Part shown: positions 206 to 58,964 of the stretch, piece by piece
Numbering within the stretch: the stretch's first letter is position 1
Layout: every line of letters starts with the position of its first letter
Assembly: GCA_017609285.1 (NCBI GenBank)
Contig: JAFCEE010000004.1
Location: 1 to 62,754, forward strand
Direction of reading: 5' to 3'
DNA length: 62,754 nt
Origin: Candidatus Pacearchaeota archaeon
Lineage (GTDB): Archaea; Nanobdellota; Nanobdellia; Pacearchaeales; GW2011-AR1
Translations under genes and position numbers: made by a program
Notes under the pieces: model-generated
What the model was told of the DNA's origin: nothing
Databases searched by the model: none
Seen by the model: the letters and a program-made list of their open reading frames with translations, nothing else

Positions 206-466
206 CCCACCCTGAAAGAAAAATTAAAACTCACGAGGTCGCTTCTTGCTCCACTCGTGCCTTCCGCTTCGCTTCAGGTCAAGCAACAGCAGATTAAGCG
301 GAAAATTTCTCTCGCATTCGCTCGTGCTTTTCGTAAGCACCAAAATTTTACCCATATTTTTCCTTCGGAAAAACAACTCGGGGTCGTTTCACTCCGCCCG
401 AGCCCTACGGGTCGCTTAATCGCGATGTTTCAATTGTCGGACATTTATTATTAAGGGGCTGGCTCG
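206..466 (+). ncRNA. Unclassified GC-rich structured element, copy 1, 5' arm (candidate large ncRNA or structured DNA element)
   Basis: Visibly GC-richer than flanks. Identity blocks with copy 2: 206-238 vs 7960-7992 (32/33), 277-301 vs 8028-8052 (23/25), 376-429 vs 8079-8132 (52/54). Conserved helices 232-237/254-259 and 292-300/413-421, hairpin 356-372. Strand suggested by one U.G-compatible change. Confidence 0.45.
434..463. repeat. Left half of two-tier inverted repeat enclosing ORF 536-1267
   Basis: TTGTCGGAC (434-442) and AGGGGCTGGC (454-463) are perfect reverse complements of 1304-1312 and 1281-1290. Confidence 0.85.
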
Positions 467-535
467 CTAACGAAAGCTTCAATCAAATTTGCACACATCA
501 ATACATTTTTATACCATTTATTCATAACATATAGT

Positions 536-1267
536 ATGCAGAATAAAAATTATCTTTATATTGGAATAATCGCAGTTTTAGCTGTTGTAATTGTCTTCTT
601 AATTGTTGGCTCTAATCAACAACAGCAAAAAGTTCAAATGAAACCATCTACTTTAATATTTAAATTAAAAAGCGATTATTCTGGGAATTATCTTGGAGCC
701 ATCAATTACTATAGTGATACCAACACTTATCGCTCATTTTATACAATGGAATTATTTGATTATTGTTATATGGCCACAATTGAAAACTGGGTTTGCCTAT
801 TGGACGAAAACACAGGCGAAGAAGATTGTCATTGTAAAGGTAGCCCAGGTGTTGAAGATAAAAGATATTGTTTGGCATCAGAAGAAGAAATCTGTTTTAA
901 TATGGACTCTGATAAACAATTAAAAAATGGCGGTGTCAAAAAACTATCAAATAATTATTATGCTGTGATTTATCCTGCTTCAGAAGAAATGGTTAAGAGA
1001 TTTGCGGTTTTTGATAAATCAATAATCACCAAAGCTATAAGTGAAAGTGATAGGGTATCAATAGTTCCTGCAACATTTCCGAAAGGAATTAAGCCTGGAA
1101 TGGGAGATTCTATGGAAATGTCTCGGGAAGAGTTTTATAGCTATGTAATTGATGAGAATCCTTTGATTGAAGCATATTTCTGTGATGAACCAGAACAAAA
1201 TTTAAATGCTGTTGCAAGAGATTTATCCAATGGAGAAATCCCAATCACTTGCAAACAAATTATATAA
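536..1267 (+). CDS. hypothetical membrane-anchored Cys-rich protein (cargo of element copy 1)
   Basis: 243-aa ORF with N-terminal TM (YLYIGIIAVLAVVIVFLIVG). TATA-like TTTTATA at 507-513, about 23 nt before the ATG. No family recognised. Confidence 0.6.
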   Translation: MQNKNYLYIGIIAVLAVVIVFLIVGSNQQQQKVQMKPSTLIFKLKSDYSGNYLGAINYYSDTNTYRSFYTMELFDYCYMATIENWVCLLDENTGEEDCHCKGSPGVEDKRYCLASEEEICFNMDSDKQLKNGGVKKLSNNYYAVIYPASEEMVKRFAVFDKSIITKAISESDRVSIVPATFPKGIKPGMGDSMEMSREEFYSYVIDENPLIEAYFCDEPEQNLNAVARDLSNGEIPITCKQII

Positions 1268-1275
1268 TTCTAAAA

Positions 1276-1645
1276 CGCTCGCCAGCCCCTACTTTTAATT
1301 TTAGTCCGACAACTTTGATTTTTTGCCTTCGGCATCGTTGCACTAAAAATCAATCCCTCCAAGTATTCGGGAGAAACTAACAGGGCTTAAAGGGTTCCGT
1401 TCGGTTGCACCTCACTACACCCAAATTCAATTTCAGCTCTGAAAAAATTCTCAACTCTGTTTCACGAGGAGAATTTTTTCGAGGAAATTGAACTTCTTTA
1501 AGCCCGATGTTAGTTTCAATTTTTGAGAATGTGCATAAATTTTTTATAATGAAGTGCCCAAGAAATGAAATAAGATAGCGTCCCGCCATCTAAGGCTTCC
1601 CAGTAACTCTTCGGATTTTTTGCTTCGCAAAAAACTCTACGCAAG
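1276..1645 (+). ncRNA. Unclassified GC-rich structured element, copy 1, 3' arm
   Basis: 1336-1358 vs 8679-8701 (22/23: CGTTGCACTAAAAwTCAATCCCT). Shared CTTTG(G)ATTTTT + C/G-closed TTC hairpin. Nested helices 1383-1392/1496-1505 and 1441-1452/1469-1480. Confidence 0.4.
1281..1312. repeat. Right half of two-tier inverted repeat enclosing ORF 536-1267
   Basis: GCCAGCCCCT (1281-1290) and GTCCGACAA (1304-1312) pair with 454-463 and 434-442. Confidence 0.85.
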
Positions 1646-1726
1646 ATTATTTTAGCTATATATCCTCACCCAAAGCAAAAGATACTCCAAAAGTTTAATA
1701 AATACCAAGTTTCTTAAATTTAAAAG

Positions 1727-2314
1727 ATGGTGCTAGGAAACAAATTTATTGTAAAACAAGAAATAGAAGCATTAGAAATTTTTACTGGTTTTGAAACAGG
1801 CAATAGATATTCTATTCTTGACGAAAGAGGAAATAAATTTCTTTATGCCTATGAAGATGAAAGTAATTTCATAAGCAAACAATTCCTAGGACAACACAGG
1901 GGATTAAAATTACATATATTAGACAATAATAAAAATGAGATTTTCACTATCGAAAGACCTTTTTATTTTTTGAATTCTAAGGCAAAAATAAAATTAAGCG
2001 ATGGAAATTTATTTGGCTCAATCATCCAGAGAAAATGGTTGGCCACAAAACAATTTGATTTTATTCTTCCAGATGGAAGAATTTTATTCTCTTGTATTTC
2101 AAAAGTGCCACATATTTGGACATTTAAGGTTTTTATGAATAATCAAGAGATAGCCCAAATACTGAAAAAATGGAGTGGTTCCGGAAAAGAATTTTTTACA
2201 GATACAGATAATTTTATGATTGATGTGTCTAATATTCAAGATGATTCAACTAAATACGCTGTTTTAATAACTGCCTTTATTATAGACTTAAGGGTTTTTG
2301 AAAGGAGAAGTTAA
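1727..2314 (+). CDS. phospholipid scramblase (PLSCR)-family protein
   Basis: Full-length resemblance to eukaryotic PLSCR core as recalled: QEIEALEIFTGFETGNRY...ERPF...FTDTDNF...ITAFIIDLRVFE versus QQIELLEVLTGFETNNKY...ERPL...FTDADNF...GACFLIDFMFFE. Confidence 0.8.
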   Translation: MVLGNKFIVKQEIEALEIFTGFETGNRYSILDERGNKFLYAYEDESNFISKQFLGQHRGLKLHILDNNKNEIFTIERPFYFLNSKAKIKLSDGNLFGSIIQRKWLATKQFDFILPDGRILFSCISKVPHIWTFKVFMNNQEIAQILKKWSGSGKEFFTDTDNFMIDVSNIQDDSTKYAVLITAFIIDLRVFERRS

Positions 2315-2315
2315 A

Positions 2316-3044
2316 ATGGACATTATTGTTTTAGATAAGATTCTAAAAAGATTTAGAAAAAAAGATATTCTTGATTATTTGTCCTTGAATATAAGGGAAG
2401 GCGAAATTTTTGGGATTGTTGGACGAAGTGGTTGCGGTAAAACAACTTTATTAAAGGTTCTTATAGGGATGTTGAATTATGAATTAGGCAAAATTTACTT
2501 TGATGGACAGAAAATTCATATTTTCAATAAAGATTTTTTGAAAAATAATATTGGCTTTGCAAGTCAAGAAAATATGCTTTATGACGAATTAACTTTAATG
2601 GAGAATATTTTCTATTATGGAAAATTGTATAATCTTTCAGGGAAAATAATAAAGAAAAATGCTTCGTCATTACTAAAATTAGCAGATTTGGATGGTGCCA
2701 AAAATTCTCTAATTAAGACTTTTTCAGGAGGGATGAAAAAGAGAGCAAATATTCTCGTTTCTCTTATCCATAATCCAAAAGTTTTAATCCTAGATGAGCC
2801 AACTGTTGGGCTTGATCCGGTTCTTCGAGATTCAATATGGGATTATATTAATGAAGTTAATAAAACTGGAAAAACAATAATTGTAACATCGCATTTATTA
2901 GAAGAATTGCAAGACAATTGTTCAGGAATAGCATTTATGGATAAAGGCAAAATAGTTTCTGTTTATGACATCAAAGATAAAAAGAGATTTTCAAATAAAT
3001 CTCTTAATGATATTTTCAAGGAGTGGGTTTCAAAAAATGGTTAA
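2316..3044 (+). CDS. ABC transporter ATP-binding protein
   Basis: Walker A GRSGCGKTT, signature FSGGMKKR, Walker B LILDEP. ATG at 2316 lies 1 nt after the scramblase stop (the track start 2298 is a TTG). Confidence 0.9.
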   Translation: MDIIVLDKILKRFRKKDILDYLSLNIREGEIFGIVGRSGCGKTTLLKVLIGMLNYELGKIYFDGQKIHIFNKDFLKNNIGFASQENMLYDELTLMENIFYYGKLYNLSGKIIKKNASSLLKLADLDGAKNSLIKTFSGGMKKRANILVSLIHNPKVLILDEPTVGLDPVLRDSIWDYINEVNKTGKTIIVTSHLLEELQDNCSGIAFMDKGKIVSVYDIKDKKRFSNKSLNDIFKEWVSKNG

Positions 3045-4740
3045 ACTATTTTCAATAATATCTAAAAATGTAAAAGTTGTGTCTAGAAGTTGGATTTATG
3101 TTGCACTCTTGATAATATTGCCTACAATTTTTGTTTTGGCTACGAGTTTGTTATTAGATTCTGTAGATGTTAATAATGTTAAAATTGGAATTGTCAATAA
3201 CCCTGGTTCTTATGAAATAAGAGAATTAATACCTAATGCAAAATTCTCGGATTATGCCTCTTTTGAAGAATGTGAAAAAGACCTTAAGTCACATTCTATT
3301 CCTGTTTGTATTAATCCAACCCAAGATTTTAATGAGACAAAAATAGATATTTATTTCGATAATTCAAAACTTCTTATTTCTCAATATGCAAAACAATATG
3401 TTTCTAAAAAAGTTTTGCAAGAACAGCTTGTAGCTTTTGAATTAACATTGGATGAAGTTTTAACAAAAATGACTTCTCTTGCTGGTGATGTAGCTTTGGC
3501 AAAAACCGAATTAGAAAATGCTTATTCAGAGTTAGTTGCACAAGAAGAAAGAATCTTGTCTTATCAAGAAAATTTTACAGAAATTGAAGAAGATTTTCAA
3601 AGAGTTTATTCTGATGTTAAACACTATCAGCCATTAATTGAAGATAATATCGAAACTCTAAAGGAGGTTAAAAAATATTTGGGAGATAATTTAACTGAGT
3701 TTAATCAACAGAGTCAAAATCTTCGTAATCAGGTAGATTTAATTAAACCAATTTTACAAAGCACACTTTCCCAAGAAGATTATGAAGATATTTCTAATCG
3801 GATTGATGGGACGATTAACACAATGGGTATTTTGGAAAGAGATCTAAACGAACTTAATTCAAGGCTCTATTATGATGACCCCGATTTAATGCTTGCAGAT
3901 TTTAATAATGCAGTTTCAACTTTAGACCAAACTAAAACCCTTTTTGAAAATTTAGACAAGGAAATCGAACAAGGAATGGAAATTATACAAAAAAATAAGG
4001 ATAGGGCTCAAGAAATTTTAAATGAAATTGAATCAAATAAAGAAGAACTTGAAAAAATAAGAAGTAAGGTTAAATCTACATCAAATTACAAGATTGTTTT
4101 GAACGATGCCTTTAAAATTAATGAATCTGCCTCTTATTTATTTTTTCCTCTGCTTCTTGTTCTAATAATTGCATTTACTTCAATAATCTTATCTAATATG
4201 ATCATAGTAGAACAAACACACAAACAAAGTTATATTAGGGAAATTATAACTCCTACAAAAGATTTTACTTTTCTTCTAGGGGATTTTATTGTTGCTTTGT
4301 TCATTGTCCTCATACAAGTAATTATTCTTTTCTTTATAGGTGAATTTATGTTCGGTCTTCCAATATTCTCAAATATCCATTATCTTTTGCCAATAGCAAT
4401 TTTGATTTCTTCAATTTTTGTTTTGATTGGAATGTCAATAGGTTATATTGTTAGATCTAAAAATATATCAATTTTAGTTTCAACATTTACTTTATTATTT
4501 TTAATAATCTTTTCAGACTTATTAATTCCTAGGCAATTAACAGGAACATTTATTAGAATACTGACTAGTATAAATCCCTTTGTAATTGCTGACAAGCTCT
4601 TTTTTAATATGATGGTCTTTTCAGAAACAATTAAATTCACAACCCTATATATTGTTCTTTTATCAATATTTTTAATTTTTGTTTTTCTTTTTGCATATAT
4701 TTGTAAAAAAATAGGAAAGTACAAATTAATGAAAGAATGA
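3037..4740 (+). CDS. ABC-2 type permease with long coiled-coil extracytoplasmic insert (YhgE/Pip-like topology)
   Basis: In-frame ATG at 3037 overlaps the upstream stop (ATGGTTAA). One N-terminal TM, about 330 aa of coiled-coil, then a C-terminal multi-TM bundle. Confidence 0.7.
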   Translation: MVKLFSIISKNVKVVSRSWIYVALLIILPTIFVLATSLLLDSVDVNNVKIGIVNNPGSYEIRELIPNAKFSDYASFEECEKDLKSHSIPVCINPTQDFNETKIDIYFDNSKLLISQYAKQYVSKKVLQEQLVAFELTLDEVLTKMTSLAGDVALAKTELENAYSELVAQEERILSYQENFTEIEEDFQRVYSDVKHYQPLIEDNIETLKEVKKYLGDNLTEFNQQSQNLRNQVDLIKPILQSTLSQEDYEDISNRIDGTINTMGILERDLNELNSRLYYDDPDLMLADFNNAVSTLDQTKTLFENLDKEIEQGMEIIQKNKDRAQEILNEIESNKEELEKIRSKVKSTSNYKIVLNDAFKINESASYLFFPLLLVLIIAFTSIILSNMIIVEQTHKQSYIREIITPTKDFTFLLGDFIVALFIVLIQVIILFFIGEFMFGLPIFSNIHYLLPIAILISSIFVLIGMSIGYIVRSKNISILVSTFTLLFLIIFSDLLIPRQLTGTFIRILTSINPFVIADKLFFNMMVFSETIKFTTLYIVLLSIFLIFVFLFAYICKKIGKYKLMKE

Positions 4741-4776
4741 AAAGATTTAAAAAGATGTAAAAGATTATACAATAAA

Positions 4777-5106
4777 ATGGAATCAAAAACAGGTTCAATA
4801 CTTTTAATGATTAGTGGAATCTTAACACTTCTAGTTTCTTTGGGTCTTATTGTTCTTTCAATTCTTGTATTTGCAGGAGTTTTGGAAGGAGAAGGTAATG
4901 TTGCATTAGGCGGAGCATTTTTATTAGTTATTGGAATTGTTATTTTAATATTCTCTTTATTGAAATTTTGGGCTTCTGGATTAATGAAAGATCCAGTTAC
5001 GACTTCTAAAGGAGGGGTTGTTGCCCTAATAGTTGGAATTCTAAACGGTGGCGACTTGTTATCAATAATTGGAGGGGTGCTGGGAATTGTTCAGGGTGGA
5101 AAATAA
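4777..5106 (+). CDS. small Gly-rich multi-pass membrane protein
   Basis: 109-aa ORF, almost entirely hydrophobic/Gly segments, directly downstream of the ABC operon. Confidence 0.5.
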   Translation: MESKTGSILLMISGILTLLVSLGLIVLSILVFAGVLEGEGNVALGGAFLLVIGIVILIFSLLKFWASGLMKDPVTTSKGGVVALIVGILNGGDLLSIIGGVLGIVQGGK

Positions 5107-5118
5107 AAACAATAAAAA

Positions 5119-5823
5119 TTATTTTTTTATCCTTTCTATCTTTCCGTCTTTCAACAGAATAATTCTATCAAAATATTTTTCGAAGGCTTTTTCGTGATTT
5201 ATGACAAAGATTGTTATACCCTTTTCTTTATTCAATTTTTTTAGAGTTTCCATTATTTTTATTCCAGCTACAGAATCTAAATTTGCAGTTGGCTCATCTG
5301 CAAGGATCATTTCAGGTTCTTTAATCAATGCCCGCGCAATTGCAATTCTTTGTTGTTCCCCTCCAGATAATTCCGCAGGATAATGGTCTTTTCTTTCTAA
5401 TAGCCCCATTTCATTTAAGATTTTTTCCGCTTTTTTCTTTATTTCTGTTGTTATTCCTTTATCTACCATCAGGGGAAGATAAATATTTTCTATCGCGGTT
5501 AATTCAGGCAATAATTCATAGTGCTGAAAAACATAACCAATTCTCTTTAATCTAAAATTTGATTTATCATCTTCATTTAATTTTATAATATTTTGCCCAC
5601 AAAAATTTATAATTCCCGAAGTAGGATTATCTAATAAAGAGAGTTGATGAAATGTTGTAGATTTTCCACTCCCTGACGGTCCAGATAAAGCAATAAATTC
5701 TCCTTTTTTCACATCAAAAGAAATTCCTTTTACTGCTTCTGTTTTTGCCTTTCCTTCCCCATAAGTTCTTACTAAATTTTTAACAGATAAGATTATTTTT
5801 TTAGCCATGGAAAATTGAGTCAA
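5119..5823 (-). CDS. ABC transporter ATP-binding protein (MacB/LolD-type)
   Basis: GPSGSGKST, LSGGEQQR, ILADEPT. An alternative ATG at 5808 would reduce the overlap with the permease. Confidence 0.9.
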   Translation of the reverse strand: MTQFSMAKKIILSVKNLVRTYGEGKAKTEAVKGISFDVKKGEFIALSGPSGSGKSTTFHQLSLLDNPTSGIINFCGQNIIKLNEDDKSNFRLKRIGYVFQHYELLPELTAIENIYLPLMVDKGITTEIKKKAEKILNEMGLLERKDHYPAELSGGEQQRIAIARALIKEPEMILADEPTANLDSVAGIKIMETLKKLNKEKGITIFVINHEKAFEKYFDRIILLKDGKIERIKK

Positions 5824-7012
5824 TTATATTTTGTTTAGTTATTTTTTTAGATACAATGTATCCGGAGATTATTGATGCAAAAATAATCGCAGAACTGACA
5901 AAAATAAAAATATTTATTTTAACTTGAGGAACTAATTCTCCCACTTCTGTTTGTATTGGATTAAATCTAAAGTATTTTATCATTAACAAAGTCAAGAGAA
6001 TTCCCAATACAGAGCCGATAATTCCCAAAAAAAATGAAAGCATAACATAAGATAAAGCCACTATTTTTGATTTTATCCCAATCGCTTTAATAATCCCAAT
6101 TTGAGTTTTTTTGTTAAGAATATTTATGTATAAAATTACATAAATAGAAATTGATGAAATTAGAATTCCAATAAAAAAAGATATATTTCCAATTATTGTA
6201 AAAGAATCTACAACAGAAGAAAATTTTGAAGATTTTTCTTTCCAGTCAGAAATTTCCACATTTAGATTCATCTTTGATAATTCTTCGATAATTTCACTTG
6301 TACATTCTCTTTTAGGCAATAAAATTATTATTTGGTCTGCTTTTGTGGCATTATAATCAGAAAAAACCTCTTTAGCTGTTTCTTCGTTAATATAAGATGT
6401 TCTCTCAACTTCAGCATATCTATGGTCATAAATTCCTTTTAGGGTTAAGAAAGTTTCGGGGTATCCATTTGGAACAATACGGGCTTTTTCCCCAACATCT
6501 AATTTAATTGTATCAAATGCTTTTATTTCATTACAACTTTCAATATTTACACAACCCATTAAGATTTTATCATTTTCTCCTTTATAAACAAAATCTCCTT
6601 TTTCGATTATATTATCTACAATTGAAACTTCTGAAAATTCTTCGGGATTAATAACTAATATTTCTGTATCAATATAATTTTCATCTTCATCATAAATACG
6701 GGCAGATTTTTTAGTTATTTTTGCAATACCTAAAATATTGGACAAAACTTTTATTTTTTCAACAACATTATTAACATTCTCAATTTTATCTTGATTTTTG
6801 TAGGGTTCTAAGATCACATGCCCCATATTTGTTTCTATAAAATTTTCTTGCAAATCATAACTAACATCTTGCAAAACCCCATAAATTATAATTGAAGAAA
6901 TGAAACCTAAAGAAATAATTAAAATTGTAAATAACAAAGAATTTTTATTTTTGATAATGTTTTTTTTTGCAATAAAAAAAGCTGTGAGAATTTCATTTTT
7001 TTTCATTCTCAA
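5801..7012 (-). CDS. FtsX/MacB-like ABC transporter permease
   Basis: N-terminal TM, large extracytoplasmic domain, C-terminal 3-TM FtsX-type bundle. Overlaps both neighbouring genes. Confidence 0.8.
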   Translation of the reverse strand: MRMKKNEILTAFFIAKKNIIKNKNSLLFTILIISLGFISSIIIYGVLQDVSYDLQENFIETNMGHVILEPYKNQDKIENVNNVVEKIKVLSNILGIAKITKKSARIYDEDENYIDTEILVINPEEFSEVSIVDNIIEKGDFVYKGENDKILMGCVNIESCNEIKAFDTIKLDVGEKARIVPNGYPETFLTLKGIYDHRYAEVERTSYINEETAKEVFSDYNATKADQIIILLPKRECTSEIIEELSKMNLNVEISDWKEKSSKFSSVVDSFTIIGNISFFIGILISSISIYVILYINILNKKTQIGIIKAIGIKSKIVALSYVMLSFFLGIIGSVLGILLTLLMIKYFRFNPIQTEVGELVPQVKINIFIFVSSAIIFASIISGYIVSKKITKQNIIDSIFHG

Positions 7013-7839
7013 TTTTTCGGATTTAATTTTTTCCGATAAAGGAAATAACCTAAAACTCCAAATATTAAAATTATTCCCGCAATATAATAATGATTTGTTC
7101 CATTTGAAAATATTTGAATTTGTATTGGAAAATTTAATTCCTTATTTTCTCCAGCAAATTTATAATTAACTTTTATATTTCCTTCATAAATTCCTTTTTT
7201 GTTTCCCTCAAAAACAAATCTCGCAGGTATATTTTCGTCTGATTCTATTTTTCCAAGATATTTTTGTTTAACTCCTTTTAATTCTAACTTTTCTAATTCT
7301 ACTCTAACATCCTTGGCTTTTCCGTTTCCGGCGTTTTCTATATCTATTGTTAGAATAATTTTTTCACCCTCAGAAATAATTTCGGGATTTGTGTAAATCC
7401 TGGAAACTGCCAAATCTGGTTTTTGTGTGTTTATTGTAATTGAAAAATTATCTTCTTTTTCTATATGAAAATTTTTATTTCCGTAAGTAATCTTGGTTTC
7501 AAAAACATGTTCTCCAGGACTTGCGTCGGGAGAAGAATGCATATGGTAAAGAATAAATCTTTGGCTGTTTGCATAACCCATTTTCCCAATATGATTTATT
7601 AAAGGTTCTTTTATTTCTATATCTTCACTATGCCTCAAAATTTCAAAAGTTATATTTTCTGGAATCTTATCCCCACAATTATCTATAACAATTCCAACTG
7701 TAAAATCCTCATCAGCTTCTATTGAACTAGGATTTATAGAGGTTATTTCCGCTGTTACACAATAACCTCTTTGAAGTGCAGAAACAGAGCTTACTAAAAA
7801 TAAAATTACAAATATTAATATCATTCCTCTTTTTATCAT
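7009..7839 (-). CDS. secreted beta-rich protein with C-terminal TM anchor (CARDB / S-layer-domain-like partner of MacB-type ABC systems)
   Basis: Signal peptide, two Ig-like beta-rich segments, C-terminal TM. 4-nt overlap with the permease gene. Confidence 0.5.
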   Translation of the reverse strand: MIKRGMILIFVILFLVSSVSALQRGYCVTAEITSINPSSIEADEDFTVGIVIDNCGDKIPENITFEILRHSEDIEIKEPLINHIGKMGYANSQRFILYHMHSSPDASPGEHVFETKITYGNKNFHIEKEDNFSITINTQKPDLAVSRIYTNPEIISEGEKIILTIDIENAGNGKAKDVRVELEKLELKGVKQKYLGKIESDENIPARFVFEGNKKGIYEGNIKVNYKFAGENKELNFPIQIQIFSNGTNHYYIAGIILIFGVLGYFLYRKKLNPKN

Positions 7840-7959
7840 AATAAAATAATTGAATACAGGTTTTTAAATCTTATTGGAAATTTCTTTTTTAGAAAAAAGA
7901 AACAAAAAGCGAGCGGGCAATATCTCAAAATTAAATGGTCGTCGGAACCATCCTCCTCC

Positions 7960-8177
7960 CCCACCCTGAAAGAAAAATTAAAACTCATGAGGGGCTTTTT
8001 TAGCCCAGCTCGTGCCTCACTTCGTTCGGTCAAGCAACAGTAGATTAAGAGGTAATTTCTTTTTGCTTCGCAAAAAACACTCGGGGTCGTTTCACTCCGC
8101 CCGATCCCTGCGGGTCGCTTAATCGCGATGTTAGTTTCAATAAAAAATCAGCTAAATATAGAAAGGGCTTTGGACTT
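7960..8177 (+). ncRNA. Unclassified GC-rich structured element, copy 2, 5' arm
   Basis: Paralogue of 206-466 (same blocks). Lacks about 40 nt present in copy 1. TATA-like AAAATTAAAT at 7927-7936. Confidence 0.45.
8141..8177. repeat. Left half of two-tier inverted repeat enclosing ORF 8177-8524
   Basis: TAAAAAATCAGC (8141-8152) and AGGGCTTTGGACTT (8164-8177) are perfect reverse complements of 8640-8651 and 8591-8604. Confidence 0.85.
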
Positions 8178-8524
8178 TAACTCATCATAGTAAAAACAGG
8201 TTTATCATACTTAACAGAGTTATCATCATTTACTAAATATTCAAGTTCGGCTCCTCCACCTGAAAGTAGAGCAATATCCTGAAATCTGAGTTTTGCTCTT
8301 GTTTTTTCTGGTCTCGAAAATGAAGTAATTGTAAATCTTCCCATTCTTTGGCCTTCTGAATATTGTTGGAAGATTTTATCAAGACTTGCTTCTGTTTCTA
8401 AATCCTCTGGAACATAAATTCCCATAGGTCTTTTTTCTCTATTATCTCGCAAGTCCCTTAATACATTTCTAAATACTTCTTCATTTTCTTTTGCAGTTTC
8501 ATAATAATCTTGTACGCCGAACAT
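8177..8524 (-). CDS. hypothetical protein (cargo of element copy 2, opposite strand)
   Basis: 115-aa ORF. TATA-like TTTAAATA (plus-strand 8547-8554) about 23 nt upstream of the ATG at 8524. No family recognised. Confidence 0.5.
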   Translation of the reverse strand: MFGVQDYYETAKENEEVFRNVLRDLRDNREKRPMGIYVPEDLETEASLDKIFQQYSEGQRMGRFTITSFSRPEKTRAKLRFQDIALLSGGGAELEYLVNDDNSVKYDKPVFTMMS

Positions 8525-8590
8525 ATTATATGATGATGATAACTAATATTTAAAGTTTTCGGATATTTACTACTAAGAAGTTACCATGAT

Positions 8591-8651
8591 AAGTCCAAAG
8601 CCCTAGAAGTTTTAACTAATGGTGCTTCGCACTCGATATGCTGATTTTTTA
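8591..8651. repeat. Right half of two-tier inverted repeat enclosing ORF 8177-8524
   Basis: AAGTCCAAAGCCCT (8591-8604) and GCTGATTTTTTA (8640-8651). The spacer contains hairpin GTGC-TTC-GCAC. Confidence 0.85.
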
Positions 8652-8814
8652 CTTTGGATTTTTCGGACTTCGTCCGAACGTTGCACTAAAATTCAATCCC
8701 TAACAGGGATTATAACACGGGTTTTATGGTTCGAGCCTTGCAGGCTCTCGGGCTAAAGCCCTCGGAGGACTTAACAGCGATTAGGCGGAAAAATCCTCAG
8801 CTCGGATTTTTCCC
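8591..8814 (+). ncRNA. Unclassified GC-rich structured element, copy 2, 3' arm
   Basis: Homologous to 1313-1392. Hairpins 8664-8676 (CGGAC-TTC-GTCCG), 8696-8710 (ATCCCT-AAC-AGGGAT) and 8733-8747 (GAGCCT-TGC-AGGCTC). Confidence 0.4.
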
Positions 8815-8883
8815 AAATTTCTTACATAAAAATTTTCCTGAAAAAATTTAAATACTTTCTTGTTTAGTGATAAAGAAATAAAA

Positions 8884-44764: not shown

Positions 44765-44882
44765 GCCTCAGTAGCTCAGTCGGTTAGAGCGTTACCTTGG
44801 TATGAAAATCACCAGCAGGTTTTCTATCCTGCGACCAAAAACAAAAAGGTAGAGGTCGTGGGTTCAATTCCCACCTGAGGCT
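44765..44882 (+). tRNA. tRNA-Thr (GGU) with 44-nt intron at 37/38
   Basis: GCCTCAG-TA-GCTC-AGTCGGTTA-GAGC-G-TTACC-TTGGTA[intron]A-GGTAG-AGGTC-GTGGG-TTCAATT-CCCAC-CTGAGGC-T. Confidence 0.85.
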
Positions 44883-48662: not shown

Positions 48663-49702
48663 ATGGTAGGGCAAAAAAGAGGCAAGTTTTTTTCAGCACT
48701 GGGTTTTGTTTTGTTTTTGTATTTATTTATTTTTTCTATTACACTTATGAAGCAATCTTTTTCCTCTTTAGGGGAGAGTATCCTTAGAATAACAAGTAGG
48801 GATTTAAGTCCTGTTAATGCTTTTGGGATTGGATGGCTTTCTACTTTAGTTATGCAATCTAGTGGTGCGGCTACTGTAGCTTTAATTACTCTTTATTCAG
48901 CTGGCTTAATCGGATTTAGAATACTGGTTTATATGATTTTAGGGACGAGAATAGGAACTACTATCACTGCTTTATTTGTTGCTTTATTGATTCATGCGAA
49001 AAGAAGAGATTTTAGACATGGTTTTGAAATAGGTTTAGCTAATTTAGTTTATGCTTTTCCCATAGCTATCTTAATGTTTCTTTTAGAATATTTTTTCAAA
49101 CTTTTTTCTCAAATAGGAAATTATTAGGTATAAATTTTAAACTGAACTTTATTGAAACTATTACTTCTCCCTTACTTAATTTACTCTCTTTTTTACCTAG
49201 TATTATTTTAGTTTTACTCGCTGTACTCATTTTGATTATTAGTTTGAGGGTAATGCCTAAATTCATGCTTTCTTTGTGGGGAGAAAAATATTTGAGGGAA
49301 AAAATAAATAAGTATCTTGGAAATAAATGGATGGCTTTTTTAATTGGCTTTTTAATTACTGCTATTTTAATGTCGACAAGTATCACCATTACTTTACTTG
49401 TTCCAATTGTTGTTTTAAGATTAGTTAATCTGAAAAAAGTTTTGCCGTATATGATAGGGGCTAATGTTGGTGGTGTTTTTGATGTTGTTATGGGAGGTTT
49501 AGTTATTGGAAGTTCTGCTTTTTCAGCTATTTTTGTTTATGTTTGTTTTAGTGTTTTTGGTCTGTTATGGCTTTTTAATACTCAGCTTTTATTTGACATA
49601 ACTAAATTTATCTCAAAAAAAATCGTGCGTGTTTCTAGAAAAAGAGCTTTTCTTTTCTTGTTGTTTTTCATTTTACTTTCCTTAGTTTTAGCATTTGCAT
49701 AA
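48663..49702 (+). pseudogene. Na/Pi-cotransporter-family membrane protein, split by a frameshift near 49043-49127
   Basis: Two ORFs (48663-49127 in frame 0; frame 2 open from 49043 to 49702) each carry a Na_Pi_cotrans-like repeat (GIGWLSTLVMQSSGAATV...; LMSTSITITLLVPIV...). Confidence 0.5.
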
Positions 49703-53321: not shown

Positions 53322-56300
53322 ATGAGTTATAAGAAATATATTAAAAGAGGTAATAAAATTTATGGACCTTATATTTATAAAAGCGAGAGAAGAGGAGAAA
53401 AAGTTGTTACACAATATATGGGTAAAGGAGAAATTGATAAAAAAAGAAGAAACAAACTCAAATTTTTGTTGGTAATTCCTCTTCTTGTAATTGTTGCTTT
53501 AATTTTTTTTAAAACTTTTCTAACTCCTACTGGGAAGATTGTTTTGGAACCTATTCCTATTTATAAAATCAATGAAACAATAATGGGAGATGTAAAAATA
53601 AATCTAAACCGTGGTGAATTAATCCCTGCTGATTCTTTGATATTATTAAAATTAGATGGGCAAGAAAAAGAAATTTCTTTATCTCAAATCACTTCTATGG
53701 AACCTATAGAAGGGGATTTTTATGCTGAGAATACTGGATTGAGTGGACATGGTTTAGGTTATGGTTTTCCTGGTGAAAAGAAAATTTACCCTACAATTTC
53801 TTTTAAGATTTTAGTTTATGAAATATCTGAAGACATAGAAGAAAGCGAGGTTTCCCAAGAATCCAATGAGGAAAACATTACAAAAGCAGTAGAAGAAGAA
53901 ATCACCTCTGAACCAACAGAAGAAACAACACAAGCAGAAGAACCTGCTCTAGAAATAACAGAACAACAAGCAGAAGAAGAAACTATTACTGAACCAACAG
54001 AAGAAACAAAAGCAGTAGAAGAAGAAATCACCTCTGAACCAGTAGAAGAAACAACACAAGCAGAAGAACCTGCTCTAGAAATAACAGAACAACAAGCAGA
54101 AGAAACATCATCATCCGAAGAAACAAAAGCAGTAGAAGAAGAAATCACCTCTGAACCAGTAGAAGAAACAACACAAGCAGAAGAACCTGCTCCTGAATCG
54201 ATAACACAAACGACAGGAGATGTTAAAGGAGAGGCAGGGATAACTGGAGCAGTAGTCGGAGGTTCAAGAGTTATCGATGGCAAGGTTTCTTATGGCGAAG
54301 AATTCGAGTATGTTCTTGGACCGGGAGAAACAGCTGCAATAATTTCAGAAAGTGTAAAAACTGATGATAAAAATTTAACATCAGATGTTCTAGAGTTTGA
54401 GATTAAAAACAACAAAGTAATAATAACAACACAATATTATGAAACAGAACAAGGTTTTGGTCCTGAGTATCTAACTGATGAGGTTGAAAGCTTGACTGCA
54501 GAACTGGAAAAGTTTAATCTAAAAGCTTTGCCAGGAATTTTAGAGATTTCGATTTTGTATAAGAATACGACAATAACAGAGTTATCAAAAAAAATCAGGG
54601 TTTCAAAACAAGAAATCCCTTTTGAAATAGAGAACATAACTATTAACATAACAGTTACTCCTAACGCAACCTCGATAAAACAAATAAAAACAATTCCAGA
54701 TATAACAATGTTGAAGAATTCTAGATATATATTAAATCTTTCTCATTACTTTTATTCTAATTTTAGTATAACTTATACAGCAATACAGCCAGAAAATATG
54801 AGTATAATTGTGGAAGGCAATAAAGCTGAAATAATTCCTCAAACTAATTTTACTGGAACTCGGGCAAGCAAAATAATAGCTCAAGTAGGAGATTTAATAA
54901 TAGAAAGCAATCTTTTCAATATTATTGTTTCTGAAAGAGATATAAGTTTAAGAACAAGTAAATTGATAAGATTAGGAAAACCAGTTAAGTGGAAAAAGAA
55001 CATTAGGTTGGAGACCCCAACTAATTTTACTATTCAAATCCCAGAAAAATCCAAAAATATAACCATTAGGAAGATTGAGAATGGCAAACAAAAAAAGACA
55101 GAAATTAAAAACTTTAAGGTTAGGGCAGGGACTCTGACAGGGTATCTAACTCTTGAACTGAAACTTGAGAGAAAGCCATCTTTTTTAAAATCTCTAAAAA
55201 ATTTATGGATGGGTCTAAAAAAACTGACTGGTTTGGCAATTGAGAATGAGACAGAAAATACGTTTGTTATAGAAGAAAAATTAACAGAAAATGTTATAGA
55301 AATAGTTATTGAAGATAATGCTACAGAATATGAAATTGAGTATGAAACATCAGCTCCTGAGGCAAGAGAGATAAGAATAGGGAAAGGAAAGAAACAAATT
55401 ACTATTGAGGCTGAACTGCCCTATACTGATATACTTGCATATACTTTTATAGAGGAAAGCAAAGAAGAAGAAATTATTGTAGAGGGAGCAGAATATTATG
55501 AGTTAGTAGATAACAATAATGATGGTCTTGTTGACGAGGTTGACTGGATTGCGAATGTAGGAGATGAGATTTTAATTAGTATAAACAAGACGGATAATCA
55601 AACAAAAAAGGTATTTAATAGAACTAAAAACGCTGATATTTATTATCTTGGGGATAACACTTACAAAGCAGTTATTAGTTTAAAGCAGAAAAATGTTAAA
55701 GTAAACAATACTTATGTTCCTTTAACTGATGTTTTAGAAATGTATTCTAATTATAAGGGCAATATTTATATTAATTTTAACAATACTGAAATTAAATTAA
55801 CACCCTATTACTATTCTGGTTCAGAAAAATTTTATTTAAGTAATATTTCAGATTATGATGTTTTGTATCATTCTCATGTTTATGATAATAAAGGGGGTTA
55901 TAAATATGCTTTTGGGATTTTTAATTTTTCAAAACTTAATACTAATAAAATTGGTTTTGAAATAAATAGTAATAAAAATATTGTTATAGAAAATAATAAA
56001 ATTATTACTGAAAATATTTTAGTTGATTTTTCTGATGTTGCTGAAAGCAATTATTCTTTGAATATGAGTTCAGAATATGTTGAGATTACTGGGGAATTTG
56101 GCGAGAATCTTTATTTAGACCCAAGTGTCACAACACCAGACCCTACTTGGGACAGAACTTGCTATTGGGATGATAGTGCAGGAAATTATAAATTTGATGA
56201 TGCAGCTTCTACAACTTTACCTTGGGGTTATCATAGTACTCTTGGTGACATAAGAAGAGGTGCAATAGACCTTGATATTTCAGCTATTCCAGATGATGTT

Positions 56301-58964
56301 GAGTCAATAGATGATGTTCATTTAAAGATTTATGTTGATAGTGTTCCCGGAGCAGCATTTAGAGATACTTCACTTTACATAACAGAAATGACAGATAAAG
56401 GTGCTAATTATGCAACTGCCCAAGCTTTATTTCAAGCAGTAGATGACAATACTAAATATTTTACTTGGGGAAAGGCAAACTGGGCAACTGGATGGCAGGA
56501 TTTTGATTTAGGAACAAGTGCTGATACTGATTTACAAAACAGACTTGCTAATGATTGGTTTTCTATTGGTTTCTATACTTCAGAAGACGGAAATGCTGGA
56601 ATGTTTAGTTCTTTCCGTTCAGTAGATTATGCAGGGACTACTTCAGACCCATATTTAGAAGTTACTTATACCTTAGCTTCAAATGTTTTAGGATTAAATG
56701 TATCTCTTAATCCTCAATCAGTTTCTTGTAATGAAAATGTTAATATTAGTGGAACATTTACTTTAAATTCTGTTGGAGTCGGAGGTGTTCCAATTGATAT
56801 TTTTATGGATGGGGTTAGATTAAATTATAAAAGGAACTTTACATCTGGAAAAACTTTTTGGGATAATGGTTCTTATTCAAATACAATTAGAACAGATAAT
56901 TATATTCTATTAGATTTAGATTCTAATTATGATATTGTAACAAATGGAAATATGGAGGGAAATTATGTAGGAGGAGTTGCTCCAAATTGGGCTGAAGCTG
57001 CTTATGGAACAAATACTTATAGTTTAGACGAAGAAACTTCAAATCCTTTGCAAGGGAGTTCATCACAAAAAGTTACTATAACTGCCTGGACTGATGGGCA
57101 AGTTGGAATTAAACAAACTCAATCTGTAACTTCTGGAACAAAATATATCTATAAATTAAGAGGAACTTCAACTAATCCTTCAGCAAGTTATTTTATAGCA
57201 TTTCAACAAGATGGAAGCCCATATACTACTTATCTTAATTTTGGAGATTCTTTTAAACCAACTACCACAAATGATTATTATACAGGAGAAAAAACATCTT
57301 CTGGAACAGATGCTGCTTGTAACTTATTAATTAGGGTCAGTAAAGTTGGAACTTATGTTTGGGATGAATTTATAATTTCAACTGCTTATCTTAGTTCTGG
57401 AACTTATACTTCTCCTCCTATTGATTTAGGAACAGGTAATGGAAGCTTGATGATTAAATGGGGAGAATCTTTGCCAGAGAATACAGATATAAAAATACAA
57501 ACACAAACTTCTCCAGATGGCTCATCTTGGGGTGATTGGAGTTCAAATTATACTAATAGTTCAGGAGAGGTTGTAGAAAATCCTCAAAGATATATTAAAT
57601 ATAAAGCTATTTTGGAAACTTCAGACACTACAGAAACTCCTAAATTATATAATGTTACTTTTTATAGTGTTTTAACAGATTCAGCAGGGAATTATAATTT
57701 TAATATAACTGCTCCGTGTGTAGCAGGAACATATAATATTACAGTAAATGCAACTTATGAAGGCTCTTCTGTTACGAATAGTAGTATTTTGAGTGTAAGT
57801 GGAGTGGGAGATACAACTTCGCCAAAAATTAATTTTACAGATCCTACCCCTAAAAATGGAACCACAATTTCAGATACAAGTTTTGAAGTAAATGTTACTA
57901 TAAACGAAACCAATTTAAGAGATGTTATATTTAATTGGGATAATACAAATTATACAATTTATAATAATAGTTTATTTGTAATGTATAATTTTGACAATGT
58001 TTCTGCTTTAGGTGAAAATGATACCTATGTTATTGATTTAAGTCCTGATAGCGAGAATAATAATGCAGTCATAAGTTCTTCTACCTTTGTGGCAGGGAAA
58101 TATGGAAAGGCAATTGAATTAGATGGTTCTAGTTCTACAATAACTCCTTTAAGTTCTGATCCTGGAAATTTCCATGACTCTTTTTCTAAATTGTTTTTTG
58201 AATCTTGGTTTAAAGCAGATGATACTTCAAGCATTAATGGAAGAACTATTTTAGATATTGGAGGAGAATCAAATGGATTTTGCGTAAGGATAAAAGCAAA
58301 TAAACTTATTGTTTGTATCCAAGATGATGATTCTACAGAAAGTATTTCTTACCCATTTACAGATACTTCTAATTGGCATCATATAACTGCAGGTTTTAAT
58401 GACAGTACTCTTTCTTTATATCTTGATGGAGAACTTAAAAATTCCACTAATACCTCCTTTTCTTCTATTTCAGAACATATAAGCGAACCAGGAATAGGTT
58501 ATACTCAGGATTCAGATGCATGTGACTGGTCTTCTTCTGGAAATTATTTTGATGGAAAAATTGATGATCTGAAAATATGGAAAGGAGTAACTTTTAATGC
58601 AGAGGAGATAAAACAACATTATTATTCAAATTTGTATAAAACTTCTGCTTCAGATTGGAATTTATATGTAAATCAAATTAACTATACTAGTGGGAGTTAT
58701 AATTATTATGCTGCTGTTTATGATTCAAGTGATAATTTTAATATGACTGAGGTTAGAAATATTATTATAGATAAAACCTCTAGAATAGGTTTAGGTTTAA
58801 TTTATCCTACTAGGAACATTAATGTAACCCAAAATCAATTTTTTAATGTTACTGTAAATGTTTCTTGTTTTCAGGAAAACTGTGGGGAAGTCAATGTAAG
58901 CTTGGATCCTGTACATACTGGATTTGTGGACCCTAATGGAGATGAGCGATTATGTTTATACTGA
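53322..58964 (+). CDS. giant surface protein (N-terminal TM anchor, acidic repeats, CBM-like and LamG/ConA-like domains)
   Basis: 1880-aa ORF; TM near residues 48-66; LamG-like region about 58030-58600 (...GKAIELDG...FDGKIDDLKIW); very many N-x-S/T sequons. Confidence 0.8.
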   Translation: MSYKKYIKRGNKIYGPYIYKSERRGEKVVTQYMGKGEIDKKRRNKLKFLLVIPLLVIVALIFFKTFLTPTGKIVLEPIPIYKINETIMGDVKINLNRGELIPADSLILLKLDGQEKEISLSQITSMEPIEGDFYAENTGLSGHGLGYGFPGEKKIYPTISFKILVYEISEDIEESEVSQESNEENITKAVEEEITSEPTEETTQAEEPALEITEQQAEEETITEPTEETKAVEEEITSEPVEETTQAEEPALEITEQQAEETSSSEETKAVEEEITSEPVEETTQAEEPAPESITQTTGDVKGEAGITGAVVGGSRVIDGKVSYGEEFEYVLGPGETAAIISESVKTDDKNLTSDVLEFEIKNNKVIITTQYYETEQGFGPEYLTDEVESLTAELEKFNLKALPGILEISILYKNTTITELSKKIRVSKQEIPFEIENITINITVTPNATSIKQIKTIPDITMLKNSRYILNLSHYFYSNFSITYTAIQPENMSIIVEGNKAEIIPQTNFTGTRASKIIAQVGDLIIESNLFNIIVSERDISLRTSKLIRLGKPVKWKKNIRLETPTNFTIQIPEKSKNITIRKIENGKQKKTEIKNFKVRAGTLTGYLTLELKLERKPSFLKSLKNLWMGLKKLTGLAIENETENTFVIEEKLTENVIEIVIEDNATEYEIEYETSAPEAREIRIGKGKKQITIEAELPYTDILAYTFIEESKEEEIIVEGAEYYELVDNNNDGLVDEVDWIANVGDEILISINKTDNQTKKVFNRTKNADIYYLGDNTYKAVISLKQKNVKVNNTYVPLTDVLEMYSNYKGNIYINFNNTEIKLTPYYYSGSEKFYLSNISDYDVLYHSHVYDNKGGYKYAFGIFNFSKLNTNKIGFEINSNKNIVIENNKIITENILVDFSDVAESNYSLNMSSEYVEITGEFGENLYLDPSVTTPDPTWDRTCYWDDSAGNYKFDDAASTTLPWGYHSTLGDIRRGAIDLDISAIPDDVESIDDVHLKIYVDSVPGAAFRDTSLYITEMTDKGANYATAQALFQAVDDNTKYFTWGKANWATGWQDFDLGTSADTDLQNRLANDWFSIGFYTSEDGNAGMFSSFRSVDYAGTTSDPYLEVTYTLASNVLGLNVSLNPQSVSCNENVNISGTFTLNSVGVGGVPIDIFMDGVRLNYKRNFTSGKTFWDNGSYSNTIRTDNYILLDLDSNYDIVTNGNMEGNYVGGVAPNWAEAAYGTNTYSLDEETSNPLQGSSSQKVTITAWTDGQVGIKQTQSVTSGTKYIYKLRGTSTNPSASYFIAFQQDGSPYTTYLNFGDSFKPTTTNDYYTGEKTSSGTDAACNLLIRVSKVGTYVWDEFIISTAYLSSGTYTSPPIDLGTGNGSLMIKWGESLPENTDIKIQTQTSPDGSSWGDWSSNYTNSSGEVVENPQRYIKYKAILETSDTTETPKLYNVTFYSVLTDSAGNYNFNITAPCVAGTYNITVNATYEGSSVTNSSILSVSGVGDTTSPKINFTDPTPKNGTTISDTSFEVNVTINETNLRDVIFNWDNTNYTIYNNSLFVMYNFDNVSALGENDTYVIDLSPDSENNNAVISSSTFVAGKYGKAIELDGSSSTITPLSSDPGNFHDSFSKLFFESWFKADDTSSINGRTILDIGGESNGFCVRIKANKLIVCIQDDDSTESISYPFTDTSNWHHITAGFNDSTLSLYLDGELKNSTNTSFSSISEHISEPGIGYTQDSDACDWSSSGNYFDGKIDDLKIWKGVTFNAEEIKQHYYSNLYKTSASDWNLYVNQINYTSGSYNYYAAVYDSSDNFNMTEVRNIIIDKTSRIGLGLIYPTRNINVTQNQFFNVTVNVSCFQENCGEVNVSLDPVHTGFVDPNGDERLCLY
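53881..54205 (+). repeat. in-frame tandem acidic repeats (126 + 117 + partial unit)
   Basis: Unit KAVEEEITSEP(T/V)EETTQAEEPALEITEQQAEE..., starting at 53881, 54007 and 54124. Confidence 0.85.

Follow-up and report, generated by a model that had tools for sequence, protein, structure and literature searches.

Integrons are the main known prokaryotic device for the capture and shuffling of single genes, and both their origin and the evolution of their integrase from Xer-like recombinases are open questions; in the related Xer/dif systems, the attachment site of CTX phage is a folded single-stranded hairpin. Archaeal integrons were first reported in 2022, mostly as arrays without an integrase. 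One study describes integrons and IntI-less clusters of attC sites (CALINs) in Nanoarchaeota, together with Pacearchaeales and Woesearchaeales metagenome-assembled genomes (MAGs) holding two to four attC sites and no IntI, and it assayed archaeal attC sites for recombination by IntI1 in a heterologous host (PMC9668308). The dif site of Thermococcales, for its part, is not adjacent to xerA (PMC2958812). Here we analyze a 62,754-nt stretch of Candidatus Pacearchaeota archaeon DNA, hereafter the window (contig JAFCEE010000004.1, assembly GCA_017609285.1, forward strand), in which two loci, copy 1 and copy 2, each carry a cargo gene enclosed by two tiers of perfect inverted repeats next to conserved structured units. 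We propose, with a probability of roughly 0.6, that these paired tiers form the outer portion of a fold-back DNA recombination structure, specific to each cassette, in an integron-like array of DPANN archaea, most likely a new variant of the integron/Xer cassette theme.

In copy 2, the lower stem begins directly 3' of the conserved GATGTTAGTTTCAAT, and the two tiers are separated by spacers of 11 nt on the 5' side and 35 nt on the 3' side. The coordinates, the perfect 12-bp and 14-bp pairings, the 5' spacer, the open reading frame (ORF) and the TATA-like box given in an initial annotation of this DNA were all reproduced from the sequence, and the cassette with its borders reads as follows:

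8131..8141, plus strand: right half-site TTAGTTTCAAT, an 11-nt Xer-arm-like sequence
8141..8152, plus strand: lower-tier 5' arm TAAAAAATCAGC, perfect 12-bp pairing with 8640-8651
8164..8177, plus strand: upper-tier 5' arm AGGGCTTTGGACTT, perfect 14-bp pairing with 8591-8604, adjoining the cargo stop codon
8177-8524, minus strand: cargo ORF of 115 amino acids, a conserved hypothetical protein of DPANN archaea
8547-8554, minus strand: TATA-like box TATTTAAA (TTTAAATA in minus-strand orientation), located 23 nt before the cargo ATG
8591..8604, plus strand: upper-tier 3' arm AAGTCCAAAGCCCT, perfect partner of 8164-8177
8622..8632, plus strand: hairpin GTGC-TTC-GCAC in the 3' spacer, whose bottom strand reads GCGAAGC, a stable DNA mini-hairpin
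8640..8651, plus strand: lower-tier 3' arm GCTGATTTTTTA, perfect partner of 8141-8152
8652..8706, plus strand: conserved 3' cassette trailer, made up of CTTTGG, a hairpin, CGTTGCACTAAAA and a left half-site remnant
8664-8676, plus strand: trailer hairpin CGGAC-TTC-GTCCG
8679-8691, plus strand: trailer motif CGTTGCACTAAAA
8698-8706, plus strand: left half-site remnant CCCTAA/CAG

Copy 1 has the same anatomy:

434..1312, plus strand: copy 1 cassette, two stem tiers around a cargo ORF
434-442 and 1304-1312, plus strand: lower arms TTGTCGGAC and GTCCGACAA
454-463 and 1281-1290, plus strand: upper arms, AGGGGCTGGC at 454-463
536-1267, plus strand: cargo ORF of 243 amino acids with an N-terminal hydrophobic segment

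The stems of the two copies are unrelated in sequence, and, as first annotated, perfect pairing is kept in both. The accompanying claim that the stem follows the same conserved motif each time holds for copy 2 (GATGTTAGTTTCAAT) and only in part for copy 1, where the junction motif is the shorter GATGTTTCAAT (424-434) and the exact 15-mer, found at 1506-1520, is part of the next unit of the same array rather than of the copy 1 junction. Homologs of the copy 2 cargo protein form 68 clusters, 55-90% identical to it, from Woese-, Pace- and Aenigmarchaeota; neither window cargo protein matched a Pfam family, and exact-sequence look-ups of both returned no record. The upper stem of copy 2 goes with this gene family, being present in the window and in the related loci L117-L124 (related loci are designated by L numbers), and the 8622-8632 hairpin is kept in L119 and L121. 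Judging by its position, the box at 8547-8554 may act as the promoter of the copy 2 cargo gene.

To delimit the family, genomes and metagenomes were scanned with the 22-nt core of the conserved flank, which returned 9 genome loci and 27 metagenome loci (36 in total) and no match in viral contigs, so that the reservation attached to the first description, namely that only the two window copies might exist, gives way to a family with dozens of members. All relatives of the repeat lie in Pacearchaeota or Woesearchaeota MAGs, or on short, probably misbinned contigs. Motif mapping across loci reveals a repeating order of cassette, trailer, unit and cassette, in which the inter-cassette unit measures 80-170 nt, starts with AACAG and ends with CGATGTT, both invariant in 16/16 units, and is closed by a helix that covaries through at least five sequences (e.g., GATTAAGCG/CGCTTAATC, GGGCTTAAAG/CTTTAAGCCC and GGGGATAA/TTATCCCC). 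The flanks are thus conserved structured elements, as had been suggested from the window alone. The cassettes between units hold zero to five genes, and in those with a single gene the cargo is encoded on the plus strand in nine and on the minus strand in seven, in agreement with the earlier view of the cargo as an autonomous cassette that can sit in either orientation.

The stems obey a positional rule. In a census of perfect inverted repeats of at least 9 nt at 83 distinct junctions, 27 junctions have a repeat with its 5' arm placed at an exact offset of 8 nt from GATGTT, the intervening bases being A-N5-AA. The first base of the lower 5' arm is always T and the last base of its partner is A, followed by CTYT and located 40-74 nt before the next AACAG; the 25 different lower arms are 9-16 bp long, span 40-3565 nt and zero to five genes, and are accompanied by a second tier in 19 of the 25 cases. 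Evidence for selection on pairing comes from orthologous cassettes whose proteins are 85-90% identical: their lower arms read TAAAAAATCAGC in the window and L117-L120, TTGAGAAAACGGC in L121-L124 and TCGAATTTTCAAATC in L127-L129, with the partner arm altered to match each time. Because the lower arms differ with matched partners while the neighboring spacers still align, these are genuine compensatory changes, and they substantiate the reading of the stems as a selected, covarying structure rather than conserved transposon ends. Consistently, direct repeats flanking the arms are absent in 15 aligned junctions, no transposase figures among the recurrent proteins of the loci, and the 25 different arms set the cassettes apart from insertion sequences and miniature inverted-repeat transposable elements.

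The null explanation is that the two window loci descend from a segmental duplication followed by unrelated insertions, as raised with the original observation, or that the stems are chance palindromes in AT-rich DNA. Upstream of the window copies, a stretch of about 230 nt is indeed common to both, at 78% identity, and short repeats are common at 30% G+C, where 24% of positions taken at random find a 9-mer partner inside 6 kb. Repeats of the length seen in copy 2 are another matter: in shuffled sequences an inverted repeat of at least 12 nt between the first 45 and the last 70 nt arose in 7/20,000 cases and one of at least 14 nt in none, and none of 547 other 511-nt segments of this sequence carries an end repeat of at least 12 nt. 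When either strand is folded, both tiers appear in the minimum-energy and centroid structures (z = -5.5 and -6.5). A chance origin of the copy 2 stems is therefore excluded, and with the same architecture at dozens of loci in different genomes, the exact stem offset at 27 junctions and the compensatory changes in orthologous cassettes, duplication with unrelated insertions is refuted as well; as a whole, this explanation is scarcely credible.

The cassette ends themselves extend the pairing. The first 8 nt of a cassette (TTA-N5) are perfectly complementary to its own end (N5'-TAA) in 13/35 own pairs, compared with 11/1148 non-own pairs, and the complementarity follows rare variants, among them AGTTGC/GCAACT (L007) and GTTC/GAAC (L021). 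Breakpoints between metagenome contigs are precise: contigs with 100% identity across some 2 kb part company exactly at CGATG/, before TT (L014/L036), after CGATGTTA (L002/L013), after TAACA (L033 versus L035 and L010) and 2 nt after AACAG (L127/L129). Contigs thus part at fixed points on both edges of the unit, which marks these as DNA recombination junctions; by analogy, the crossover point in the window would be G8130/T8131. In L117-L120, a relative of the window cassette that keeps its stems and encodes a 90% identical protein has a junction without any unit, consisting of the minimal 11-6-11 palindromic site GACGAAACTAA-CAGGCA-TTAGTTTCAAT, whereas the window cassette follows a full unit. 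Further minimal junctions of the 11-5/7-11 type occur in L025, L118, L125 and L004; elsewhere, the window included, most junctions have their two arms 80-170 nt apart. The right-arm consensus TTATATGCAAT resembles both the Pyrococcus abyssi dif arm TTATATCTAAA (PMC2958812) and the R' box of published attC sites, and the half-sites resemble canonical attC R boxes, including the published Nanoarchaeota attC, which reads ACATAAC...CATGGTTATGG.

Clustering of the ORFs from all loci yields one dominant family, a tyrosine recombinase of about 270 amino acids encoded in eight loci, where its gene precedes the arrays by 0.4-4 kb and runs on the opposite strand. In these related loci, the protein passes the cut-off of the archaeal XerA profile NF040815 (recomb_XerA_Arch; 235 bits, cut-off 220) and fails that of the integron integrase profile TIGR02249 (208-224 bits, cut-off 265), which it matches in two stretches that skip profile positions ~180-254, the IntI-specific domain. 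Its best solved relatives are XerA (4A8E, 163 bits, and 5HXY), then IntI4 (2A3V, 133 bits, in two stretches) and then XerD; it is also weakly similar to tyrosine invertases. A search from the protein side recovered units in 11 of about 20 DPANN loci with upstream DNA, and 22/25 of these units are found on its upstream side, in divergent orientation to the gene; in bacterial control loci totaling 665 kb there were four hits. In several loci a perfect 11-6-11 palindrome (e.g., TCATATCATAA-GTTTAT-TTATGATATGA) stands about 90 nt upstream of the recombinase gene, and this gene-side 28-bp palindrome is followed, in the direction of the array, by NNATG/TTA-N5-AAT and the first cassette.

Perfect or near-perfect palindromes of this kind (e.g., TGGTATCATAA-GTTTGT-TTATGATACCA) were noted in L052, L053, L057, L058, L062 and L066, as well as in L009 (3420-3450) and L007 (2470-2510), and several of the contigs that bear them end exactly after the following ..ATGTT. 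Such gene-side palindromes could be a chromosomal dif, an operator or an attI-like site. L022 has a unit of opposite orientation (2680-2900) whose end, CGATG/TTATCATGAAT, coincides with the start of the recombinase ORF, and that gene may lie behind a junction with arrays on both sides.

The kinship with XerA invites an explanation in which independent mobile elements, comparable to integrative mobile elements exploiting Xer (IMEX) or the pdif modules of Acinetobacter, use the housekeeping XerA and dif and have piled up at a dif site beside xerA, without any dedicated platform. The score above the XerA equivalog cut-off, the perfect 28-bp 11-6-11 palindrome adjoining the gene, the dif-like minimal junctions and the likeness of the arm consensus to the P. 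abyssi dif arm all speak for it. Yet the cassettes, which go down to 0.4 kb and have the size of integron cassettes, are devoid of replication, transfer and integration genes, an 80-170-nt hairpin replaces the 6-bp spacer at most junctions, which are thus not ordinary duplex dif sites, and both the fold-back and the strand bias described below are more attC-like than dif-like. We regard this explanation as unlikely, if worth keeping in view; what chiefly separates it from our fold-back proposal is whether the array has a recombinase of its own.

The small hairpins of the units bear on whether the structures form in DNA or RNA. Their tips are 3-nt loops closed by C-G, which read TTC, TAC or TGC on the top strand and hence GAA, GTA or GCA on the bottom strand. 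Distinct triloop hairpins in strictly defined units are 29 TNC on top (GNA on the bottom) against a single GNA on top, with p = 6e-8, a value that overstates independence because the counted hairpins are evolutionarily related; the rest of the window has 17 TNC and 22 GNA triloops on the top strand. GCGAAGC occurs four times in the array region of the window, always on the minus strand, and the attC of aadA7 has the same TTC/GAA tip. The d(cGNAg)/GCGAAGC motif is a DNA-specific, extraordinarily stable mini-hairpin (PMC13037366, PMC3201870). UNCG RNA tetraloops were considered and rejected, the loops being C-G-closed TNC triloops with GNA on the other strand.

A further element concerns transcription. 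The window contains, at the site listed here, a palindromic T/A-tract motif that occurs nowhere else in it (0 expected):

7883..7909, plus strand: palindromic T/A-tract motif TCTTTTTTAGAAAAAAGAAACAAAAAG

In the form TTCTTTTTAGAAAAAAGAA(G/A)CAAAAAG, it is located just before the 3' upper arm, with tracts of five to six T on both strands, and it recurs at cargo 3' ends in L004, L007, L008, L009, L014, L020 and others; it is probably a bidirectional oligo-T terminator.

The initial annotation had implied a role in RNA. In such a reading, a long array transcript would use the stems as processing helices, as in rRNA stems or bulge-helix-bulge introns, so that the cargo is cut out or circularized and the units act as functional RNA. 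Such introns and stems resemble the present loci in having long helices that flank a large insert, with sequence free to vary and structure kept, and ORF-containing inserts are known in archaeal rRNA introns. The flanks are indeed full of small hairpins with compensatory changes, the folding z-scores are strongly negative on either strand, and an intron-bearing tRNA in the window indicates that the splicing endonuclease pathway is present (44765-44882, plus strand, with a 46-nt intron, recognized by Rfam at 59 bits and missed by ARAGORN). Nevertheless, the 3-nt bulge/4-bp helix/3-nt bulge geometry was found at none of the tier junctions of the window and the 15 aligned junctions, the copy 2 lower stem being a continuous 12-bp helix next to an inter-tier loop of 11 x 35 nt. 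Rfam searches of the window and nine loci, at gathering and at permissive thresholds (E up to 10), returned only tRNAs, apart from one weak match discussed below, and left the units unrecognized. A single transcript with both arms is unlikely because the cargo lies on either strand, apparently with its own promoters, and oligo-T palindromes sit inside the stems. The loops are triloops rather than UNCG or GNRA tetraloops, their 29:1 bias fits a DNA-specific motif on the opposite strand, and RNA function alone leaves the fixed DNA breakpoints and the recombinase linkage unexplained. Taken together, these observations argue against RNA processing, which we consider very unlikely, and favor folding of the bottom DNA strand.

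Three other candidates were set aside. A CRISPR-DR5 match at 8680-8716 (Rfam, E = 4) is attributable to chance, with no array and no cas genes; neighboring rRNA genes do not account for matches at contig ends, as no locus contains rRNA; and a circularly permuted RNA gene was dropped once the array order was clear.

The inverted half-sites raise the alternative of an inverton or shufflon, in which half-sites and stems would be inverted repeats acting in duplex DNA and cassette flips would switch expression. As in those systems, segments are bounded by inverted recombinase sites (TTA/TAA half-sites with spacers that are near mirror images, CGATG/TTA ... TAA/CAGCG), a tyrosine recombinase with weak similarity to invertases lies nearby, and cargo orientation is about 1:1; the sole hint of an actual inversion is a 47-nt perfect inverted copy of a trailer and half-site in L002 (2539-2585, versus L013 3916-3962), about 360 nt downstream of the next junction. 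The repeats, though, are private to each cassette, differing between and matching within cassettes, which speaks for pairing between the arms and against a single consensus recognized by a protein. In 37/43 cases the asymmetric trailer motif CGTTGCACTAAA is oriented as the units, no cassette is seen in both orientations between the same flanks, the polymorphisms observed are gains, losses, replacements and insertions, not flips, and the strand-biased GNA hairpins would have no role in a duplex-only mechanism. Inversion as the main activity is accordingly quite unlikely.

We therefore return to the fold-back proposal, whose anatomy, covariation, crossover positions, strand bias and recombinase linkage in relatives are observed, and to its putative mechanism. 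A cassette starts with an 11-nt Xer-arm-like half-site (TTA-N5-AAT) right after CGATG and ends with the complementary N5'-TAA followed by CAG, with one to three further tiers of private inverted repeats beside the half-sites. Neighboring cassettes are joined either by a plain 5-7-nt spacer, giving an 11-6-11 dif-like site, or by an 80-170-nt attC-like hairpin unit, such that every segment of the array, gene cassette or non-coding unit, has its own pair of complementary half-sites and short spacers link the neighbors. Once the bottom strand is single-stranded, the segments could self-fold and turn the array into a chain of stem-loops with Xer-arm-like terminal duplexes, on which the XerA-family recombinase, encoded divergently at the array head in the relatives, may exchange strands at G/TTA and TAA/C and thereby excise, insert or reshuffle cassettes and segments. 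In a free circular cassette, the half-sites with the lower and upper tiers would form one long imperfect hairpin with the crossover deep inside, and the outer tiers would come to lie on either side of the cargo because integration splits this hairpin at its internal crossover. The tiers may thus stabilize the structure and its synapsis by holding together pairing across 0.4-3.5 kb.

Compared with integrons, the loci show several likenesses. Small accessory-gene cassettes lie between sites that fold into hairpins and conserve this structure over a variable sequence; an invariant AAC...GTT reminiscent of the outer box (R box) is followed by a spacer and a second covarying helix, comparable to the L box; the crossover is at G/TT, and a cassette opens with bases complementary to its own 3' site. 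In the related loci, a divergent tyrosine recombinase stands at the array head, and the palindrome followed by NNATG/TTA stands where an attI site would, between recombinase and first cassette. The bottom-strand folding bias with its GAA-type tip matches the aadA7 attC, and ParE toxin and nucleotidyltransferase genes, a type of cargo common in integron arrays, are found nearby: in L117 (3801-5015) and L118 (399-1613), the counterpart of the window cassette is immediately preceded by genes for a ParE toxin, a ferredoxin and a nucleotidyltransferase (NTP_transf_2). By contrast, the array recombinase scores as XerA and is devoid of the IntI extra domain around patch III, the pairing runs 20-40 bp past the crossover so that cassette ends pair across the cargo, the units, at 80-170 nt, exceed typical attC sites in length and keep a highly conserved sequence from genus to genus, and the hairpin is missing at some junctions, which are bare 11-6-11 sites. 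Breakpoints fall on both sides of the unit, including TAACA/, multi-gene cassettes reach 3.5 kb, and the cargo lies on either strand equally often, apparently with its own promoters, whereas integron cassettes are mostly promoterless, in one orientation and expressed from a common promoter. The arrays thus agree with canonical integrons in crossover position and cassette-end complementarity and depart from them in integrase domain and cassette orientation.

With Xer/dif systems the loci have in common an XerA-family recombinase, 11-nt arms with a TTA start and a TAA end, 5-7-nt spacers at minimal junctions, a perfect 28-bp palindrome beside the gene, and modules with a single or a few accessory genes between such sites. 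They differ in the large structured insertion that replaces the 6-bp spacer at most junctions, in arms that covary per cassette instead of following a single consensus, in having no phage or plasmid genes and in the palindrome abutting the recombinase gene, unlike the dif of Thermococcales; only the minimal junctions look like those of a dif-bounded element. The literature searched holds no description of IMEX or dif-module arrays in archaea, nor of stems that span the cargo, of the conserved unit seen here or of cassette arrays tied to XerA, the papers found being on canonical integrons and Xer, and a 2026 preprint on complete Nanobdellota genomes (208 closed genomes; 10.64898/2026.05.13.725050) mentions neither integrons nor Xer nor cassettes. 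The statement that no described system is comparable was nonetheless too strong, since integron attC cassettes and Xer/dif elements are close in logic; what stands is that cargo-spanning pairing appears in no description found. Some of the published CALINs may be members of this family.

Several observations weigh against the proposed fold-back structure. Around half of the junctions are without a detectable perfect stem at the 8-nt offset, and the 9-10-nt matches in the census are partly noise given the background frequency of 9-mer partners. Breakpoints on both sides of the unit are a misfit with the integron rule that the attC travels with the upstream cassette. The strand argument leans on related hairpins, and an independent strand test based on G-T versus A-C asymmetry is unusable because the helices are almost all perfect Watson-Crick (2 versus 3 mismatches in closing helices and 1 in lower stems). 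The 62.7-kb window contains no recombinase gene, and the recombinase of the relatives may be merely the housekeeping XerA of these genomes. Finally, the innermost pairing is damaged in both window cassettes, by a 4-nt deletion in copy 1 and a deletion of about 22 nt in copy 2, where comparison of the trailer with L119 (judged by eye) shows the loss of the stretch with GAAACTAA, the partner of 8131-8138.

The remaining array features of the window are as follows:

206..429, plus strand: 3' end of a P1-type cassette (206-289), then the first inter-cassette unit (285-429) of copy 1
1313-1383, plus strand: copy 1 trailer, ending in GGGAGAAACTAACAG
1379-1511, plus strand: second inter-cassette unit, with the different closing helix GGGCTTAAAG/CTTTAAGCCC
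1510-1520, plus strand: right half-site TTAGTTTCAAT after the second unit
7960..8040, plus strand: P1-type non-coding stretch that closes the preceding cassette on its 3' side, with the left half-site CAAGCAA/CAG last
8036..8132, plus strand: third inter-cassette unit (attC-like), with AACAG, 5' strand of the closing helix, GC-TTC-GC hairpin, conserved core CTCGGGGTCGTTTCACTCCGCCCGA, 3' strand of the closing helix and CGATGTT
~8770-8818, plus strand: incomplete fourth unit, with CTTAACAG, CGATTAGGCGG, hairpin AAAAATCC..GGATTTTT, then CCCAAAT

The window array, which begins 205 nt from the window edge, thus comprises three full units (285-429, 1379-1511 and 8036-8132) and a truncated one at ~8770-8818, whose missing 3' half and CGATGTT mark the end of the array. 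The first 28 nt of P1 (7960-7987) are identical at 28/28 positions to 206-233 and recur in L007 and L008. In L007 the P1 pairing partners TTTTAATTTTTCTTTC and ATTGCCCGC, which are absent from the window, adjoin the recombinase gene, and P1 is therefore the 3' end of a first cassette, which explains it better than the promoter or leader considered before. The 6.5 kb between two units at 1512-8040 hold eight genes (a scramblase, two ABC-transporter sets, a CARDB protein and others), open with the lower-arm-like TTTTGAGAATGTGC, which resembles TTTTTGAGAATGCC of L026 and has no 3' partner, and close with the P1-type trailer; this segment looks like a chimeric or fused cassette. With the damaged innermost pairings and a segment of this kind, the local array may be partly decayed or fossilized.

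Elsewhere in the family, L017 (1292-1485 and 5262-5398) and L026 (2455-2648 and 5357-5495) have non-coding cassette ends that are 85-90% identical, including second and third tiers, around different genes, which suggests that cargo may be exchangeable inside a conserved stalk. With a G+C content of 30% and a seryl-tRNA synthetase-like ORF and tRNA genes near the array, the window is chromosomal DNA of a DPANN archaeon; the intron-bearing tRNA gene also speaks for its archaeal origin. Outside the array, an 1880-amino-acid ORF (53322-58964, plus strand), with Glu/Thr/Pro-rich tandem repeats of 126 nt (42 amino acids) at 53880-54197, probably encodes a large surface protein, and an imperfect dif-like 11-6-11 palindrome, ATTTGACATAA-CTAAAT-TTATCTCAAAA, with arms matching at 9/11 positions, lies at 49591-49618 inside the ORF 49232-49702 and may be due to chance.

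More broadly, the loci could represent an undescribed gene-capture platform of DPANN archaea, integron-like in layout and served by an XerA-type enzyme without the IntI extra domain, with single-stranded fold-back sites, a crossover deep in the hairpin and covarying stems of their own around the cassettes, in which the coexistence of bare dif-like and attC-like junctions would mark an intermediate between Xer/dif systems and integrons. This wider proposal is a tentative one, to which we give somewhat less than even odds. The repeats break metagenome assemblies, many relatives being found on contigs shorter than 1.2 kb or at contig ends, and the pairing rule would aid genome finishing. If true, the proposal could explain by what means DPANN arrays that lack an integrase are serviced, would provide a testable model for the transition from Xer recombination to integrons, and would place a hot spot of gene exchange in host-dependent organisms with tiny genomes.

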